DNA from: an uncultured Gammaproteobacteria bacterium
GTDB taxonomy: Bacteria > Patescibacteriota > Microgenomatia > Levybacterales > UBA12049
Assembly: GCA_964637955.1 (NCBI GenBank)
Contig: CAZWXQ010000002.1
Coordinates: forward strand, 199,782-263,781
Reading direction: 5' to 3'
Length of the DNA: 64,000 nucleotides
Position numbers and translations under genes: made by a program
The notes under the pieces: generated by a model
The model's database searches: none
What the model saw: the letters and a program-made list of their open reading frames with translations, nothing else
What the model was told of the DNA's origin: nothing
Part shown: positions 3,045 through 56,864 of the stretch, in pieces
Layout: each line of letters begins with the position of its first letter
Numbering within the stretch: position 1 is the first letter of the stretch

Positions 3045-3083
3045 TTAAATTATCGTAAAGATTATATTAGCAAATAAAATCAA

Positions 3084-3127
3084 GTATTTCCACAGCGAGT
3101 ATCAAGTATTTCTCCGGCGAGTCCTGG
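3084..3127. repeat. Tandem 22-nt direct repeat x2 (ATCAAGTATTTCYMCRGCGAGT) upstream of gyrB
   Basis: atcaagtatttccacagcgagt / atcaagtatttctccggcgagt read directly, followed by the 7-bp inverted repeat CTCCGGC..GCCGGAG. Confidence 0.5.
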
Positions 3128-3151
3128 GTCCTTAGACTGCCGGAGAAAAGC

Positions 3152-3463
3152 TTAAGCCTCTTTAGGCTCTGCAGCTGCTGGAAGACCAAGTCCTGATCTT
3201 AAGTCTTCTGGGATCTCAAAAGCATCAGCTATACTTCCTAGCAATCGATCAACTGCTTTGTTTAGATCTGAACGATCTACAAAGAGCGTCTGATGTTTTA
3301 CCGCTACTGCATCAACTAAAATGTCGGGAATACCTGCCGCTCTAAGTCTTTCTTCAGAGCTAGCTGCTTCGAAGCGTATGTCCGATCTTCCAAATGCAGT
3401 ACTTGACCGTCCGCGAGAAACGGCTTGAGCATCTTCGAGCAATGATCTTTGTCTTTCACTCAT
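3152..3463 (-). CDS. Small hypothetical protein (~103 aa) with strong Shine-Dalgarno site; member of the leader-attenuator gene set
   Basis: ORF 3152..3472. ATG at 3463 is preceded by AGAAGGAGGTGATAATT. Protein is R/E/A-rich (MSERQRSLLEDAQAVSRGRS...). No family recognised. Confidence 0.55.
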   Translation of the reverse strand: MSERQRSLLEDAQAVSRGRSSTAFGRSDIRFEAASSEERLRAAGIPDILVDAVAVKHQTLFVDRSDLNKAVDRLLGSIADAFEIPEDLRSGLGLPAAAEPKEA

Positions 3464-3485
3464 AATTATCACCTCCTTCTAAAAC

Positions 3486-3510
3486 CACAAAAAAACTCCC
3501 TTACGGGAGT
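3486..3510 (-). terminator. Intrinsic terminator/attenuator hairpin ACUCCC-GUAA-GGGAGU plus U7 in the leader of the 3152..3463 gene
   Basis: Plus strand reads aaaaaaactcccttacgggagt. The minus-strand RNA has the hairpin followed by UUUUUUUGUGG, then the SD and ATG 25 nt later. Confidence 0.55.
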
Positions 3511-3615
3511 CAGGTTTTCTAAAGCAAAAAATTAATTTAAATCAAAAATACGCTAGCTCCCAAGAGAGTTAGCTCGCAGCATTTTTGATTTGATAGTCTT
3601 CTTAACATTAGCTTT

Positions 3616-3624
3616 ATAATACCA
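3616..3624 (-). promoter_or_regulatory. Extended -10 promoter (TGGTATTAT) upstream of the leader of the 3152..3463 gene
   Basis: Minus-strand TGGTATTAT lies ~150 nt upstream of the start codon. An upstream GGGAG box (CUCUCUUGGGAGCU) could pair with the terminator 5-prime arm. Confidence 0.3.
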
Positions 3625-3694
3625 AATTAAGATACGGTTTTCTAGTCTTTAATTAAATATACATTTGATTTAGTGGACAACTTCTAATTATTTC

Positions 3695-3940
3695 TTATTC
3701 CTCAGGCTGAGGAATAATTGGCTCACCTGTGGTATGTAGATCTGAAATTATTCCCAGATTCCATGCACCTGATACTTCGACTATTCCTCTTTCCACATAG
3801 TCTCTTAATTCCTCATCAACAATATCCTTTAAAATTTGATCCAATTCTGGATTTGGTGGGAGATCATCGAACAAATTTCTGTTAAAAGGAGGTCTTGGTG
3901 GGCTTTCCACCCAAGTTATCTGTGGGATTGGTCTTTCCAT
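3695..3940 (-). CDS. Hypothetical protein (81 aa); overlaps the 3-prime end of the next gene by 25 nt
   Basis: ORF only. Its stop codon is embedded in the palindrome TTATTCCTCAG-G-CTGAGGAATAA. Confidence 0.3.
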   Translation of the reverse strand: MERPIPQITWVESPPRPPFNRNLFDDLPPNPELDQILKDIVDEELRDYVERGIVEVSGAWNLGIISDLHTTGEPIIPQPEE

Positions 3941-4551
3941 AGTGGAATTAAAGCATTATTAGTTTCGATTTGCTTGGTTTGGCGGGTTTTTTTGAGGAAT
4001 CGAAAATCGCCTTCTTCGACAGATTCTGCTTCACCAGTTTCTACAAGTTTTCCCCACACAGCAGTTGCTGACGGGGAGGGCCAGTCTGAGTGTAATGGCG
4101 TATCGGACAGATATGCTAAAGTTAATGCATTCATCATTCTGTATCTTCTTATTCCTAGCCCTTTTCTTTTAAATGGCTTAAATGTGTATGTTCCTTCTAC
4201 TCGTGGTCTTTCTTCATCCGAATTTTCTCCTACCATAGTTACGCTCGCCATTCCTCTTCCTGTTACTATTCCCATTCTATTTTTATCAAATAGCTCTAGC
4301 GCCCATCCTAAATTTGATCCATCTTCTTGTTCTGATTTCCAGATTATTCCATAAGACGCTGTGTCATCAGAATGATAAACGCCAAAGTATTCTGGCTTTG
4401 AGCTCTTAACTTCTTCTGCTTTGAAATATCTTTTTATGGCATCAATATTATCATCTGGAGATAGTGGAACCAAAATGCCAGACGGAAAATGTTCTCTAAA
4501 AATTTTTTGCCTATCATCTTCCCTGTGTAAATAATTTTCGTTTTCTAACAT
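3916..4551 (-). CDS. Putative GNAT-family N-acetyltransferase (211 aa)
   Basis: RKGLGIRRYRMMNALTLA resembles the GNAT motif A (R/Q-x-x-G-x-G/A). Extended -10 TGTTATAAT lies 8 nt upstream of the ATG. Confidence 0.4.
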   Translation of the reverse strand: MLENENYLHREDDRQKIFREHFPSGILVPLSPDDNIDAIKRYFKAEEVKSSKPEYFGVYHSDDTASYGIIWKSEQEDGSNLGWALELFDKNRMGIVTGRGMASVTMVGENSDEERPRVEGTYTFKPFKRKGLGIRRYRMMNALTLAYLSDTPLHSDWPSPSATAVWGKLVETGEAESVEEGDFRFLKKTRQTKQIETNNALIPLWKDQSHR

Positions 4552-5781: not shown

Positions 5782-5802
5782 AACGAGATTATAGCAAAGT
5801 TA

Positions 5803-40137: not shown

Positions 40138-40178
40138 AATGATATTATAGCATAAATAGGCCTATAATGCTAGTTTTT

Positions 40179-40403
40179 TTAAATCTCGGGATATAAAGTC
40201 TTAATGACATGATCCGGTGCATCAGCCACTAATTTTACCAATGTTTTAATTGATTCAGCGTCAGGTTGACCACCCTGTATTTTTCCCTTCACTACTCTAT
40301 TATGCGCTACCGCTATAGTAAGTGCGTCAGGTTTTTGTTCACCAGCCTCATTTATAATAATATCAGTTTTATCTATAGTTCCAATACTACTTTCTCTTTC
40401 CAT
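40179..40403 (-). CDS. Small hypothetical protein (~74 aa) with strong SD; leader-attenuator gene set
   Basis: AAAGGAGGTGATTATT then ATG at 40403. Protein MERESSIGTIDKTD... Confidence 0.5.
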   Translation of the reverse strand: MERESSIGTIDKTDIIINEAGEQKPDALTIAVAHNRVVKGKIQGGQPDAESIKTLVKLVADAPDHVIKTLYPEI

Positions 40404-40585
40404 AATAATCACCTCCTTTCTTTTAATTTATTTGCTTTTCCGTTAGGAAAAGTTTAGTAAAATCTTATGCTATCTTTAGGTCGAATATATTTAAGTCTCT
40501 TATTGAGTACCGAATGGTACGAGATTTAGAGTTAATTATCCTAACTAATGACGGTTAGGACTTTAGTCACTTTACTTTTTTGACC

Positions 40586-40610
40586 ACAAAAAACCTCCCA
40601 TTCGGGAGGT
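40586..40610 (-). terminator. Leader terminator/attenuator ACCUCCC-GAAU-GGGAGGU plus U6, ~180 nt upstream of the 40403 start
   Basis: Plus strand reads acaaaaaacctcccattcgggaggt. An upstream P1 hairpin ACUUCC-UUUAAC-GGGAGGU could pair alternatively with the terminator 5-prime arm. Confidence 0.55.
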
Positions 40611-40695
40611 CAGTGACCTGTTATTTTACAACAGCACCTTACCTCCCGTTAAAGGAAGTAAAGTAAAAATATACTGCTGTTCTAATCATGGATTT

Positions 40696-40724
40696 ATAAT
40701 AGCAAAATTATCATAAACTTTCAA
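40696..40724 (-). promoter_or_regulatory. Promoter TTGAAA-17-TATTAT for the 40403 leader
   Basis: Minus-strand TTGAAAgtttatgataattttgcTATTAT. Confidence 0.45.
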
Positions 40725-40751
40725 TTAAAACCTGTTAGCCTCGATTAGCCT

Positions 40752-40780
40752 CGCAAGGCCAGGCCTTGCGAGGCTGGAGT
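40752..40780. repeat. REP palindrome (perfect copy) with partial duplication of its 5-prime flank (tagcctcgaTTAGCCTCG)
   Basis: Read directly. Lies 42 nt downstream of the truncated greA stop. Confidence 0.9.
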
Positions 40781-40822: not shown

Positions 40823-41107
40823 CTAGTTAATGCGCCTTAAGATTACCGTGTGGCCTATTTGCACAGTTTCATTTTGCTTTGGTTTTTCAATAATTTTGGC
40901 GTTTTCCATAAGATGAGATAAGTGTCTAATTTTTCTATCCAAATCAGAGAGTTCAAATCTGGCTCCTTTATAAAACCCGTTTTCCGAGAGATCCCCCATC
41001 GCCCTTGCTCTAGCAAGTGTCGCTACAGCTTCAGGTCGTCTTTTCTTAGCATCCTCGAGATCATTTTTAAATTTAGCAAATCCTTCCTTTGTAAATAAAT
41101 ATGCCAT
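40823..41107 (-). CDS. greA: Transcription elongation factor GreA, N-terminal coiled-coil domain only (truncated; possible pseudogene)
   Basis: GDLSENGFYKGARFE matches the GreA N-domain. The ORF ends ~20 aa into the C-terminal FKBP-like domain (VQIGHTVIL then stop). No downstream frame continues the protein. Confidence 0.6.
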   Translation of the reverse strand: MAYLFTKEGFAKFKNDLEDAKKRRPEAVATLARARAMGDLSENGFYKGARFELSDLDRKIRHLSHLMENAKIIEKPKQNETVQIGHTVILRRIN

Positions 41108-45125: not shown

Positions 45126-45377
45126 TTAGCTTATAGCACCTGTATTGTCCACTAAAACATTTTCTATAACAGGAGAGGTTGCTACTTCAATTACAGGCTG
45201 AGCAGCAGTTAATGCTCTCTCTGCTCGTTTTTGCGCTGACAATTGTATAATTTCTAGTCTTGAAGCAGGATACGATTCAATTGCTTCACCAGAAACTAAA
45301 TCTTCAACTAGTACATGGGTAATGCCCCCAATTCTAGCTAGTCTTGCTTTTTCCACATAATGTGCTTTATCTATCAT
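45126..45377 (-). CDS. Small hypothetical protein (83 aa) with strong SD; own promoter plus attenuator
   Basis: AGAGGTGATTAATT then ATG. Protein MIDKAHYVEKARLARIGGITHVLV... Confidence 0.5.
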   Translation of the reverse strand: MIDKAHYVEKARLARIGGITHVLVEDLVSGEAIESYPASRLEIIQLSAQKRAERALTAAQPVIEVATSPVIENVLVDNTGAIS

Positions 45378-45428
45378 AATTAATCACCTCTATTCTCCGC
45401 CATGATTTATTGAAGGCTGATTTTTCCA

Positions 45429-45454
45429 CAAAAAAACCGCCCATAAGGCGGTTC
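45429..45454 (-). terminator. Leader terminator/attenuator AACCGCC-UUAUG-GGCGGUU plus U7
   Basis: Plus strand reads cacaaaaaaaccgcccataaggcggtt. Upstream box AACGGCGGUU is complementary to the terminator 5-prime arm. Enclosing stem GUUCUUGC..GCAAGAAC. Confidence 0.55.
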
Positions 45455-45529
45455 TTGCTCATGCAAATAAACCGCCGTTAGGAGGTCATGCAAGAACACA
45501 TAAATACGTTATTTTTCATAGGTTAAGAC

Positions 45530-45558
45530 ATGATATAAAATTGGCTTAATTAAGTCAA
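45530..45558 (-). promoter_or_regulatory. Promoter TTGACT-17-TATCAT for the 45377 leader
   Basis: Minus-strand TTGACTtaattaagccaattttaTATCAT. Confidence 0.45.
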
Positions 45559-46183: not shown

Positions 46184-46621
46184 TTAGGTCATATTTGTAA
46201 GATGATGTATATCTCTAGCTCTGTATTTAGCCCTTATTCCTTTTGGAGTTAGTCTCTGTCCATTTGAATAAAGTTCAACTATTTCTCCTTCTATAGTTCC
46301 TTGAAATATAGAGACCGATCCATCTCCCATTTTGGCAAGTGCCTGTAATTCTCTAACTATTTCACCTGCTGTAAAATGACCTGCTGTAAAATTACTGGTT
46401 TCTTCATTTGTTTGTTGTATTATTCCTAGAACACAAGCGCCTGGATTTATCACCGCTTTTACTAATGTTCCTCTTTGAATGTTCCTAATTACTTCTCCTT
46501 GTGGAATATCTAATGGTTTAGTGTCAGACTCGCTGGGTATAGCGAGAAAAGCACTTGAAAATGCCGTTTCGCTTTCCCCATCAATTAATTGTGAATCAAC
46601 TTCGCTCATATTTTTAGCCAT
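46184..46621 (-). CDS. Hypothetical protein (145 aa); first gene of an SD-bearing operon
   Basis: ATG lies immediately after the terminator U7 (GGGAGGUUUUUUUAUG). Contains internal FTAGHFTAG. Confidence 0.5.
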   Translation of the reverse strand: MAKNMSEVDSQLIDGESETAFSSAFLAIPSESDTKPLDIPQGEVIRNIQRGTLVKAVINPGACVLGIIQQTNEETSNFTAGHFTAGEIVRELQALAKMGDGSVSIFQGTIEGEIVELYSNGQRLTPKGIRAKYRARDIHHLTNMT

Positions 46622-46646
46622 AAAAAAACCTCCCTTGTGGGGAGGT
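46622..46646 (-). terminator. Leader terminator/attenuator ACCUCCC-CACAA-GGGAGGU plus U7, directly abutting the start codon
   Basis: Plus strand reads taaaaaaacctcccttgtggggaggt. The only SD for the gene (GGGAGG) is in the hairpin 3-prime arm. An upstream UUACGGGGAAC box could pair with UCCCC. Confidence 0.55.
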
Positions 46647-46741
46647 CTAAGTTTCTGCTTCTGGCCTTATTACGCCACAAACTTAGTTCCCCGTAAGGAG
46701 TTAAGAAGGACGAGAATAAGGTTTCTATTTAACATAGAGTG

Positions 46742-46771
46742 AGTATATCAAAGTGGAATTTTTTCTGTCAA
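46742..46771 (-). promoter_or_regulatory. Promoter TTGACA-18-TATACT for the 46621 operon leader
   Basis: Minus-strand cTTGACAgaaaaaattccactttgaTATACT. Confidence 0.5.
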
Positions 46772-46818
46772 GAAGAAAAAATAAGATGCAGAAACAAGTT
46801 TAGCATGATTGTTTTACT

Positions 46819-47469
46819 TTATCCAACTGAAGTAGCTACCTGACGTTCATTGTTCATAGTAAATGAAGTTCCATGTTTTTTGGCCATAGATTTATACTGA
46901 CGTGCTTGTTTTTTGCCATTAATTGCACTGAACCATGCCAAAGAATCATCAACGCTCATTCGAAGCTCATGAATGAAGCTAAGCATTTTATCTAAGAAGT
47001 TAAGGTGATAAATTCCAACCTGTTCTCCAGTTTGTTCCATAGCAATAACTTCTACTTTTTGCTTTAACTCTCCTGAGCTTTCAGTTAGTTGTTTAATTTC
47101 AATCATTATTTGATGAAGTCTAACTTCAACCTCTTGGGAATGCTTCGCATCTGCTCTTTCTCCCGCATGCGTGATTTCACGCATATATTTTTGCCCTGCT
47201 TCTGTAACTGCATGTGCTTTTTCATGGAGACTGCCTAGGTCAAACTCATGGCCCTCTTCTAAAACTCCATGACTCGAGCTATGACCGCCTTCATTGTGGT
47301 CTTCCTGTGGAATTAGAAGTTGGTTCCATGTATCATGGGCTACGCCGTCTGCATTTACTTTAACTTGATCAACTGTGGATCTTACTACGCCGGTTAATGA
47401 CTCTAGGACGTTGTCATTCGTATAGTGTTTTTCCTTCTTTTTGCTGCTAAGAAGCTTAGGTAGATTCAT
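46819..47469 (-). CDS. Hypothetical His-rich protein (216 aa)
   Basis: ORF only. Confidence 0.4.
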   Translation of the reverse strand: MNLPKLLSSKKKEKHYTNDNVLESLTGVVRSTVDQVKVNADGVAHDTWNQLLIPQEDHNEGGHSSSHGVLEEGHEFDLGSLHEKAHAVTEAGQKYMREITHAGERADAKHSQEVEVRLHQIMIEIKQLTESSGELKQKVEVIAMEQTGEQVGIYHLNFLDKMLSFIHELRMSVDDSLAWFSAINGKKQARQYKSMAKKHGTSFTMNNERQVATSVG

Positions 47470-54033: not shown

Positions 54034-54639
54034 TTGTCAAAAATGAGGCTAATTTTATGCTATGCTAAATTAATGAATATCAGATTTATTCTGTGGTTGT
54101 CCGGATGCTTTTTAATCACTATATTTTGTGGACTAGTTTATATTTCTTCTCAGCAAATCATCAGACATTCTGCCAATTATCCCCTAGTGGAAATTGCTTC
54201 AGATATTTCCAATGCGTCAAGAGTAAGTCAGATTGAGCTTGATAATTCTTTGCCCAAACAAAAAGTAGATGCAATTTATAGTAGTGGTTCACCATATGTA
54301 ATAATCTTTGATTCCAAATTTAATATTATTGCTACAAATGCAACAGCCGAGGGAAAGCAAATTGAGGAAAAACCACCTTTTGGTGTATTTGAGAATGTAT
54401 CTGATAATTTGCCTTACTTTTTTACCTGGGAGCCGGTGTCTAGCTTTAGGTATGCCACTGTAGTTCGGGAAATTAAATTAGACAATAAAAAAGGCTATGT
54501 TTTAGTAGCCAGATCGTTAGGATATGTTGAACAGCTTGGGAAACAAATGTTTATTTATGCTGTATTTGCCTGGATTTTGGGTATTGGTGTCGTATCCATT
54601 GCAGCTATTCTAATTTCAAAATGTTCAAAGAAAAAATAA
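54034..54639 (+). CDS. Hypothetical membrane protein (201 aa)
   Basis: N- and C-terminal TM helices. Confidence 0.4.
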   Translation: MSKMRLILCYAKLMNIRFILWLSGCFLITIFCGLVYISSQQIIRHSANYPLVEIASDISNASRVSQIELDNSLPKQKVDAIYSSGSPYVIIFDSKFNIIATNATAEGKQIEEKPPFGVFENVSDNLPYFFTWEPVSSFRYATVVREIKLDNKKGYVLVARSLGYVEQLGKQMFIYAVFAWILGIGVVSIAAILISKCSKKK

Positions 54640-54668
54640 AACTCCGCTTTTAAAACGGAGTTTTATTT
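54636..54668. terminator. Bidirectional intrinsic terminator (AAACTCCG-loop-CGGAGTTT flanked by A- and T-runs)
   Basis: aaaataaaactccgcttttaaaacggagttttatttat, between convergent genes. Confidence 0.6.
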
Positions 54669-54681
54669 ATATTTGTTAAGT

Positions 54682-55101
54682 TTAATTTCCAGAATCTACT
54701 TTGACCTGAATTTTTTTAGGTTGAGATTTGGGAGATTTTGCAAAAGAAATTTTCATTACACCATGCTTATAATTTGCAGATGGTTCCTGATTTTGATCTA
54801 TTTCTCCTGGAACTGCAACCCTATACGAGAATGATCTTGTAGCTTCTCTATAATATTTTCTTGATTTGTCTTTTTCTTCCTCTTTTGTTTCGCCTTTTAT
54901 CCATAGATTTCCATCGTGGAAAGTTATATCTATATTTTTTGGATCGATTCCTGGAACTGAAGCCTCAACATAGATATGAGTATCATCTTCTGAAACTGAA
55001 AGTCCACCTGTGGTGTTAGAGATTGTTGGAATCAGATCTTCATCCTCGTTCCAGATAGATGGGAAATTAAATAACCTACTTGGAACTAAATCATATGACA
55101 T
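54682..55101 (-). CDS. Small heat-shock protein, Hsp20/alpha-crystallin family
   Basis: Alpha-crystallin domain (GVMKISFAK, IPGIDPKNIDITFHDGNLWIKGE). ATG at 55101 preceded by GAAAGGAGGTGAATTAT. Confidence 0.75.
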   Translation of the reverse strand: MSYDLVPSRLFNFPSIWNEDEDLIPTISNTTGGLSVSEDDTHIYVEASVPGIDPKNIDITFHDGNLWIKGETKEEEKDKSRKYYREATRSFSYRVAVPGEIDQNQEPSANYKHGVMKISFAKSPKSQPKKIQVKVDSGN

Positions 55102-55129
55102 ATAATTCACCTCCTTTCTTGTTCTAGTA

Positions 55130-55166
55130 TTAGCACTAATATACTACGAGTGCTAACTCTTGTCAA
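55130..55166 (-). promoter_or_regulatory. CIRCE-like HrcA operator (TTAGCACT-N10/9-GAGTGCTAA) overlapping a TTGACA-17-TATATT promoter of the hsp20 gene
   Basis: Plus strand reads ttagcactaatatactacgagtgctaactcttgtcaa. CIRCE consensus is TTAGCACTC-N9-GAGTGCTAA. Confidence 0.65.
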
Positions 55167-56840: not shown

Positions 56841-56864
56841 TTGTGAAATTATACCACTCAGGGT

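Follow-up and report, generated by a model that had tools for sequence, protein, structure and literature searches.

A predicted family of leader-peptide transcription attenuators with presumed leaderless sensor reading frames in Patescibacteria-like genomes

Introduction

The trpL, pheL, hisL, thrL, leuL and ilvL attenuators of Enterobacteria combine a short leader open reading frame (ORF), in which codons for the amino acid to be sensed occur, with alternative RNA pairings (1:2, 2:3 and 3:4) and an intrinsic terminator in front of the regulated gene; at the leader stop codon, a ribosome that completes translation lies over segment 2, and the leader amino acid fits the pathway. We analysed a stretch of 64,000 nt (the window; contig CAZWXQ010000002.1 of assembly GCA_964637955.1, positions 199,782-263,781 of the forward strand) that carries four units with this architecture, designated copies A (3.5 kb), B (40.6 kb), C (45.5 kb) and D (46.7 kb). 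Our main subject is copy A, at 3485-3644, which precedes a gene for an orphan protein of 103 amino acids (aa) at 3152-3463. All coordinates are window positions, all four copies lie on the minus strand, and loci in relatives carry L-numbers (e.g. L097). The likeness to the enterobacterial leaders extends to the sensed-amino-acid codons and their fit to the pathway in the relatives. The units differ from them in that the leader ORF lacks a Shine-Dalgarno (SD) sequence and sits at the presumed 5' end of the transcript, a single scaffold (CCUCCC/GGGAGG in both hairpins) serves many amino acids, the genes regulated in the window encode orphan small proteins rather than biosynthetic enzymes, and the lineage appears Patescibacteria-like.

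Bacteria of the candidate phyla radiation (CPR) are mostly uncultured and are generally held to be poor in transcription factors and largely host-dependent for amino acids. To our knowledge, gene regulation in these bacteria is largely unknown. A literature search returned no paper on attenuators in Patescibacteria/CPR, which is not proof that none exists.

Leaderless sensory ORFs have been described in Actinobacteria. The ilvBNC genes of Corynebacterium glutamicum are preceded by a leaderless IlvL leader ORF for which a three-hairpin attenuation model was proposed (PMC11857589); its anti-antiterminator, antiterminator and terminator logic is also that proposed for the units described here, as is the leaderless sensory ORF. 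In mycobacteria, leaderless polycysteine short ORFs constitute a "Cys ribulon" and are reported to act by unmasking a ribosome-binding site and not via an intrinsic terminator (bioRxiv 10.1101/834739). Cys codons as a sensor (proposed here for copies A and C), a leaderless 5' AUG (presumed here) and several units that may respond together are points in common with the mycobacterial system; copy A, however, contains only a pair of Cys codons where that system has a tract. These actinobacterial systems come from another phylum and have no sequence similarity to our units. For copy A, a leaderless start is presumed from a distance of 7 nt from the -10 element to the ATG and the absence of an SD. 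Early termination at copy A would also release an RNA of ~120 nt that encodes the leader peptide, in which it would resemble rnTrpL of Sinorhizobium meliloti (PMC6614838). We found no evidence for any trans target of the copy A RNA, and keep a trans role only as a possible second function.

Searches of the whole window with Rfam at gathering thresholds returned three tRNAs only, and E-value searches returned nothing for copy A and a sub-threshold match to Phe_leader (RF01859, the gammaproteobacterial pheA leader) for copies B and D alone. RF01859 aligns over its full length, from AUG to U tract, with D, B and the Phe unit of locus L072, at 33.5, 29 and 43.7 bits, respectively; these scores are below its gathering score of 55, and the three units are therefore not members by the family's own criterion. 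Its terminator consensus (GCCUCCC...GGGAGGC-U6) is like that of our units, and the leaders here encode other amino acids. Common descent and convergence could each account for this likeness and are not separable with the present sequences.

Results

A four-segment leader in front of the copy A gene

The promoter, GGGAG box, terminator, SD and 103-aa ORF listed for this locus in an earlier note were all found on the minus strand between 3152 and 3644. The note had overlooked the element on which the proposed mechanism turns, the leader ORF at 3537-3608, and had not named leader-peptide attenuation. The following features were identified for copy A.

3639-3644, minus strand: -35-like hexamer TAGAAA (promoter scan: 17-nt spacer, TATTAT, TG present)
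3616-3624, minus strand: extended -10 element TGGTATTAT, with the leader ATG 7 nt further on (sequence and promoter scan)
3537-3608, minus strand: leader ORF MLRRLSNQKCCELTLLGASVFLI, 23 codons and a stop, without an SD and presumed leaderless
3576-3581, minus strand: adjacent Cys codons UGC UGC within the P1 5' arm, candidate regulatory codons by analogy to CC/CCC leaders before PALP genes
3539-3591, minus strand: hairpin P1 (segments 1:2), putative anti-antiterminator (minimum free energy (MFE) folds)
3557-3561, minus strand: GGGAG box (segment 2), complement of the terminator 5' arm CUCCC; pairs with 3505-3509 in the MFE fold with segment 1 masked
3512-3538, minus strand: A/U-rich linker from P1 to the terminator (sequence and fold)
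3494-3511, minus strand: intrinsic terminator GACUCCC-GUAA-GGGAGUU (segments 3:4; pattern and terminator scans)
3485-3495, minus strand: U7 tract followed by GUGG (sequence)
3456-3488, minus strand: mini-ORF VVLEGGDNYE*, GUG start, 10 codons; the terminator 3' arm is a possible SD for it, and its stop lies 5 nt beyond the first base of the main ATG
3468-3478, minus strand: SD AAGGAGGTGAT (also written AAGGAGGUGAU) of the 103-aa gene
3152-3463, minus strand: regulated gene, 103 aa, MSERQRS..., ATG at 3463 and stop at 3152, in-frame native codon usage

Together, P1, the GGGAG box, the terminator and the leader ORF make up the four-segment layout of a trp/phe-type attenuator. The leader ORF runs from its ATG at 3606-3608 across both arms of P1 to a stop codon at 3537-3539, downstream of the box and 28 nt before the terminator; it contains two Cys and six Leu codons, and no amino acid forms a long run in it. 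The terminator, with a 7-bp GC-rich stem, a GUAA loop and U7 at 3489-3511, was the top candidate of the first 20 kb in the terminator scan, and the pattern CTCCC-N4-GGGAG-N-T5 occurred twice in the window compared with 0.03 expected occurrences. The SD of the 103-aa gene begins 6 nt past GUGG, which leaves no space for a promoter of its own, and the gene therefore depends on read-through. On the strength of its sequence, we consider it probable (about 80%) that 3485-3644 controls the gene at 3152-3463 through ribosome-mediated attenuation of transcription, as in trp/phe/his-type leaders. For the family as a whole, the sequences make attenuation through a leaderless leader ORF very likely.

Alternative pairings of the leader RNA

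Folding of the full leader gave P1 plus the terminator as the MFE structure. The state with a stalled ribosome was then modelled by masking segment 1 and cutting the RNA before the terminator 3' arm. Under these conditions the MFE structure was the 2:3 helix between the box and the terminator 5' arm in 4/4 copies, with energies of -15.3 (A), -24.9 (B), -16.7 (C) and -21.3 (D) kcal/mol. Boxes matched their own terminators better than those of other units (mean longest Watson-Crick match 6.76 versus 5.95; 0/2000 permutations as high). Box and terminator were also altered together, as in copy C (GGCGGUU/AACCGCC, core GGCGG/CCGCC) and L044 (GCGGGG/CCCCGC). In L072, the box AGGAGGCC accompanies the terminator GGCCTCCT (also written GGCCUCCU), whose 3' arm pairs partly via G-U. 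Outside the box, P1 sequences varied greatly between units. P1 and the linker were aligned poorly by MAFFT, and explicit pattern and terminator scans were therefore used instead of a covariance model.

Distribution of the unit and geometry of the leader ORF

Public genomes (one per species) were scanned with the pattern CTCCC-N4-5-GGGAG-N0-2-T6-RTGG, which gave at least 120 loci. Among the matches listed, approximately two-thirds of 128 came from unrelated bacteria, for example Pseudomonas and Flavobacteria, where they were ordinary terminators at the ends of genes or tRNAs, and the hairpin with U tract and RUGG is therefore generic by itself. Approximately 40 of the listed matches lay in AT-rich contigs and had the full composite of promoter, ATG, hairpin with box, linker and terminator. 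The possibility raised in the earlier note, that the motif is frequent at ordinary gene 3' ends and hence a generic terminator family, thus holds for the hairpin, U tract and RUGG alone; only the composite of promoter, leaderless ORF, box and terminator is specific.

Contigs with the composite were, where named, recorded as Curtiss-, Davies-, Levy- and Woesebacteria or as "Patescibacteria group", and several others were labelled "uncultured Gammaproteobacteria". Metagenome-assembled genomes (MAGs) with the latter label (L016, L018, L024, L028, L053, L072, L079, L092, L097 and others) share modules with named Microgenomates MAGs, and the lineages given for these records seem untrustworthy.

A generic terminator scan of 38 related loci and the window identified 60 strong terminators, ~50 of them of the CCUCCC/GGGAGG type. 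Overall, the pattern scans yielded ~45 units beyond the window in Patescibacteria-like contigs and >100 metagenome matches. The density was four units per 64 kb in the window and up to four per 8 kb at some related loci.

A re-run of the generic terminator scan provided 48 units with an upstream box, and these were used for statistics. The best promoter upstream of each box was predicted without reference to any ATG, with random windows from the same loci as the null. This analysis revealed that the next ATG lay 6-9 nt past the predicted -10 element in 28/48 units compared with 6.9% in the null (p = 1e-20). The leader ORF stopped 24-37 nt before the terminator in 25 of these 28 units compared with 7.6% in shuffles (p = 3e-25). 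The alternative frames of 46 leader ORFs (997 codons) contained 87 and 72 stops, and only 3/46 had an SD-like tetramer upstream of the leader ATG. The module is real, and its sequences form a new family of a putative switch that is of a textbook kind.

Leader amino acids and downstream genes

The leaders of relatives contained the residue runs FFYFFF, IIII, TTTTT, CCC, HHH and SSSS. Runs of at least three identical residues occurred in 19/46 leaders in frame compared with 10 and 8 in the other frames. The leaders listed here stand before genes with an annotated domain or family; the first five entries come from the related loci and the last five from the metagenome scan.

Leader MNNLRKFFYFFFAFRKEGGLV (FFYFFFAF): prephenate dehydratase with ACT domain
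Leader ...NWFYFTS...: DAHP synthase
Leader MLISIKEIIEIIITS... (EIIEIIIT): citramalate synthase (TIGR00977, 459 bits, cutoff 450)
Leaders ...TTTTT... and ...TTIT...: the same SerB-like HAD-IB family in two genomes
Leaders HHH and HH: HAD-IA hydrolases
Leaders CCC or CC, four cases (L132, L148, L184, L191): PALP (cysteine-synthase-like) enzymes, one with CBS domains
Leader FFF: chorismate mutase with prephenate dehydratase
Leader SSSS: fusion of HAD, 2-hydroxyacid dehydrogenase and ACT (SerB/SerA-like)
Thr-rich leader (TT.TT): amino-acid kinase
Leader YYWH: aminotransferase

In these relatives, the units in which the leader run agrees with the downstream pathway include those with Phe, aromatic, Ile, Cys, Ser and Thr leaders. 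A by-eye look at whether the downstream protein is depleted of its leader's amino acid gave no consistent pattern. At one locus (L070:4014-4223), two tandem attenuators with Thr-run leaders, MANQFISTTTTIS followed by MKKYIFIIETTTTTQFFWEC, precede a single SerB-like HAD gene.

In L184, two adjacent Cys codons occur with a Cys-pathway-type enzyme, and for this reason copies A (KCCE) and C (MCSCM) are proposed to respond to Cys. For copy A, the probable cue is Cys or else general translation stress. The leader of copy B looks aromatic and that of copy D branched-chain, as judged from their peptides.

Proposed mechanism and alternative explanations

In the mechanism that we propose for copy A, transcription would start ~7 nt past the extended -10 element, such that the RNA begins at or next to the leader AUG, and a ribosome would load on the 23-codon leader ORF without an SD. 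The ORF would span P1, with segment 1 as the 5' arm that carries the two Cys codons and segment 2 as the 3' arm that carries the GGGAG box. During fast translation, the ribosome would reach the stop at 3537-3539 and cover segment 2; the 3:4 terminator (GACUCCC/GGGAGUU with U7) would then fold and RNA polymerase would halt before the gene. If no translation took place, P1 would form and the terminator would form too. If the ribosome stalled in segment 1, the free GGGAG would pair with CUCCC, and this 2:3 antiterminator would prevent the terminator and allow transcription of the strong-SD gene. The likeliest cue for stalling would be scarce Cys-tRNA at UGC UGC, while the Leu codons or generally slow elongation could also act as such. 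Sequence and statistics establish the parts, their geometry, the complementarity and the agreement of leader amino acid with regulated enzyme across the family; the start site, the stalling, the amino acid read by copy A and the switching itself are inferred.

Several points weigh against this assignment. The amino acid sensed by copy A is uncertain, because its leader has only two Cys codons in addition to six Leu codons, and its pathway logic cannot be checked because the regulated gene is an orphan. The 2:3 core of copy A is only 5 bp (GGGAG/CUCCC) compared with 6-8 bp in most units, and it has no Phe_leader match even at E<=10. A test of the flanks, which set pairing of the box with the terminator 5' arm against copying of the 3' arm, gave 8 versus 11 versus 6 positions, and small subfamily alignments contained few compensatory changes. 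In addition, the lineage of many loci rests on database labels, and leader ORFs and downstream genes were partly picked by our own rules.

The same architecture might instead sense the overall state of translation, as capacity or as stress (ribosome availability, elongation inhibitors or global starvation), with the strong-SD genes as a stress regulon. The leader of copy A has no long amino-acid run, the window genes behind the units are orphans that nothing connects with amino-acid metabolism, and one of only ~6 window sites with a comparably strong SD belongs to the hsp20 gene controlled by a CIRCE element (controlling inverted repeat of chaperone expression), all of which fit this explanation. 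In relatives, however, leader composition closely tracks the pathway of the downstream enzyme, and two adjacent Cys codons accompany a Cys-pathway-type enzyme in L184. We therefore regard general stress sensing as rather unlikely overall, while for the orphan-gene units it is plausible on the same hardware. A further explanation, which we hold to be improbable, is that the ~120-nt transcript from promoter to terminator is mainly a trans-acting small RNA (sRNA), acting for example via its SD-like or anti-SD-like segments, and that its position before a gene is secondary. A promoter of its own and a strong terminator do predict a discrete short RNA, CCUCC/GGGAGG-like segments are present, and trans functions of attenuator RNAs have been reported from Sinorhizobium (PMC6614838). 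However, the gene depends on read-through, with no space for a separate promoter after GUGG, and a purely trans role explains neither the geometry of the leader ORF nor the matches between leaders and enzymes. Since cis and trans roles are compatible, a trans role could exist in addition.

Two explanations do without a functional leader ORF. If P1 bound a metabolite or a protein, as in riboswitches or PyrR- or TRAP-like sites, the short ORF would be incidental; a hairpin followed by a terminator is a platform typical of riboswitches, and one relative gave a weak PyrR-site match (25 bits, gathering score 54). No Rfam family was found at threshold, however, and the start and stop positions of the ORF are far too regular for an incidental ORF. 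A binding site of this kind is very improbable because P1 is variable outside the box and has no conserved ligand pocket or core. Least probable of all is that the hairpin simply terminates the upstream operon (genes 3695-4551) ahead of an ordinary gene, with the promoter, box and ORF coincidental. A hairpin with U tract and RUGG is a common 3'-end terminator in many bacteria and the unit does sit between same-strand genes, but the composite has four occurrences in the window and dozens at other loci, and the regularity of the start/stop geometry argues against coincidence; insulation from upstream read-through would be compatible with an attenuator. Riboswitches, CsrA/PyrR/TRAP-type protein sites, T-boxes and an independent sRNA gene as the sole function were set aside.

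Beyond ribosome-mediated attenuation at copy A, a broader scheme can be put forward tentatively. One attenuator scaffold may have been multiplied into many units, with each leaderless peptide tuned to a different amino acid. Jointly, these units might constitute the main read-out of charged tRNA (a multi-amino-acid "ribulon") in small, regulator-poor Patescibacteria-type genomes. They might also drive islands of fast-turnover, strong-SD orphan small proteins (starvation or host-interaction effectors), with the SD-like terminator 3' arm and the start codon adding a translational layer. A family of amino-acid-reading attenuators offers a sequence-level handle on what these cells sense, and its units mark unknown small proteins as likely starvation-induced. 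The units are currently unannotated, and the family could join RNA-family libraries. Its interest lies in the density of units in these genomes, the single scaffold for many amino acids and the fast-changing orphan genes under its control.

Copies B, C and D and the ortholog of copy D in L097

Scans and folds identified the following features for the other window copies.

40584-40724, minus strand: copy B, promoter, leader ORF 40639-40689 (MIRTAVYFYFTSFNGR), GGGAGGU box, terminator 40592-40611
45426-45558, minus strand: copy C, promoter, leader ORF 45478-45519 (MKNNVFMCSCMTS), GGCGGUU box
45435-45453, minus strand: copy C terminator AACCGCCU-UAU-GGGCGGUU; regulated gene 45126-45377
46618-46771, minus strand: copy D, TTGACA/TATACT promoter, leader ORF 46670-46735 (MLNRNLILVLLNSLRGTKFVA), terminator 46627-46647

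The count of four dispersed copies given previously was reproduced, with two units from the terminator pattern and two more (C and D) with variant stems. The accompanying proposal of a duplicated regulatory module in front of unrelated small genes was borne out in part: the module recurs, the four units share one architecture, and proteins A and D have no homologue. The units are not simple duplicates; mean column identity was 57% in the alignment of the four leaders, and the leader peptide differs in each copy. The copy B gene starts at 40403 (MERESS), 180 nt past GUGG, and three further small hairpins, CCUAACCGUCAUUAGUUAGG, CUCGUACCAUUCGGUAC... and UUUUCCUAACGGAAAAG, are present in this spacer (40404-40583, minus strand). 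Four small unannotated genes (145, 92, 89 and 83 aa) are clustered between copies C and D.

The N-terminus MIIM(S)ER, which the earlier note had taken to be shared by the proteins behind copies A and B, is largely an artefact of the SD and the ORF caller; the GTG sits within the SD GGAGGTGAT, and the ATGs are the true start codons (MSERQRS and MERESS). Unrelated regulated proteins do begin alike (MSER, MER, MTER, MTDR or MASER), at 3451-3463 and 40391-40403 in the window and in L016, L028, L012, L043 and L044. The conserved module seems, from the sequences compared, to reach through the first few A-rich codons of the regulated genes.

The L097 locus is syntenic with the window at 40.8-50.5 kb (GreA-N, L20, L35, IF3, ThrRS, DUF5660 and others; 48-81% aa identity). 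Its D-type attenuator occupies the same place after the DUF5660 gene and has 77% nt identity from the promoter into the first codons (window 46184-46830 versus L097:3994-4675). Conservation between the window and L097 stops just past the start codon (AUGAGCGAAG versus AUGACAGAAGG), which may explain the frequent M-S/T-E-R protein starts. The small genes behind the D-type unit had no similarity between L097 and the window. An attenuator that is conserved while the downstream gene differs between related genomes suggests that regulated genes are exchanged behind a fixed switch. The copy D gene starts at 46621 or 46609; the codon right after the U tract is a possible start in D, but the L097 ortholog has ATT there, and the next ATG is conserved.

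In other units as well, a start codon often follows the terminator directly. An ATG or GTG immediately past the U tract was found in 8/13 units that had not been selected for it, compared with 5.6% at other T tracts (p = 9e-8). With the sequence GGGAGGU, the 3' arm of the terminator resembles an SD and lies at SD distance from this GUG or AUG, which is usually followed by G. In some units the codon opens a long downstream ORF and is possibly the start of the gene. The mini-ORFs past the U tract often begin M/V-E-K, and their stop lies <=9 nt from the main ATG in 13/34 cases, although these distances are short anyway. The terminator hairpin may thus also hide a ribosome-binding site, which we regard as a lead and not a result.

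The copy A gene and translation initiation in the window

The 103-aa ORF is a real gene, as its codon usage is clearly native and in frame (score +0.39 compared with -0.68 and -0.80 in the other frames; GC content at third codon positions 0.24). A single-sequence structure model of protein A was all-helical with low confidence (predicted local distance difference test score 64.8, predicted template modelling score 0.38). A search of 5.8 billion clustered proteins with protein A returned only the query itself; the same held for protein D, and cluster look-up yielded no names. Protein A is present in sequencing run SRR14271332. The small proteins of the window had no significant match in Pfam or NCBIfam.

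SD sequences comparable to AAGGAGGTGA were found at only ~6 window sites, namely genes A and B, two small genes of the cluster at 45-46 kb, a weaker one at C and the CIRCE-linked Hsp20 gene. None of 30 long window genes had an SD. By eye, a -10 hexamer ended 6-8 nt before the ATG at roughly half of these 30 genes (e.g. 5782-5800, 40138-40155 and 56841-56860). Leaderless initiation therefore appears common in this genome, and the organism appears to rely largely on leaderless mRNAs.

Other features of the window

The Hsp20 gene (54682-55166, minus strand; Pfam HSP20, E = 2e-16) has a TTGACA/TATATT promoter and a strong SD. A CIRCE-like inverted repeat, TTAGCACTC-N9-TAGTGCTAA at 55130-55156, overlaps this promoter, and a 16-bp bidirectional terminator lies at 54634-54668.

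An ORF at 40823-41107 (minus strand) encodes only 94 aa and matches the N-terminal GreA/GreB domain alone. It is followed at 40747-40775 (minus strand) by a perfect 14-bp GC-rich palindrome, AGCCUCGCAAGGCC/GGCCUUGCGAGGCU, and two copies of the short repeat CGAGGCUAA, without a U tract.

In the spacer that separates gene A from gyrB, immediately before the gyrB promoter, a direct repeat GAAATACTTGAT is present at 3101-3112 and 3079-3090 (minus strand), with the two units 22 nt apart. The hairpin UCUCCGGC...GCCGGAGA (3115-3146, minus strand) precedes the repeat. The region at 3079-3146 may be a regulator site, and one of the repeat units includes a DnaA-box-like sequence, TGTGGAAA.

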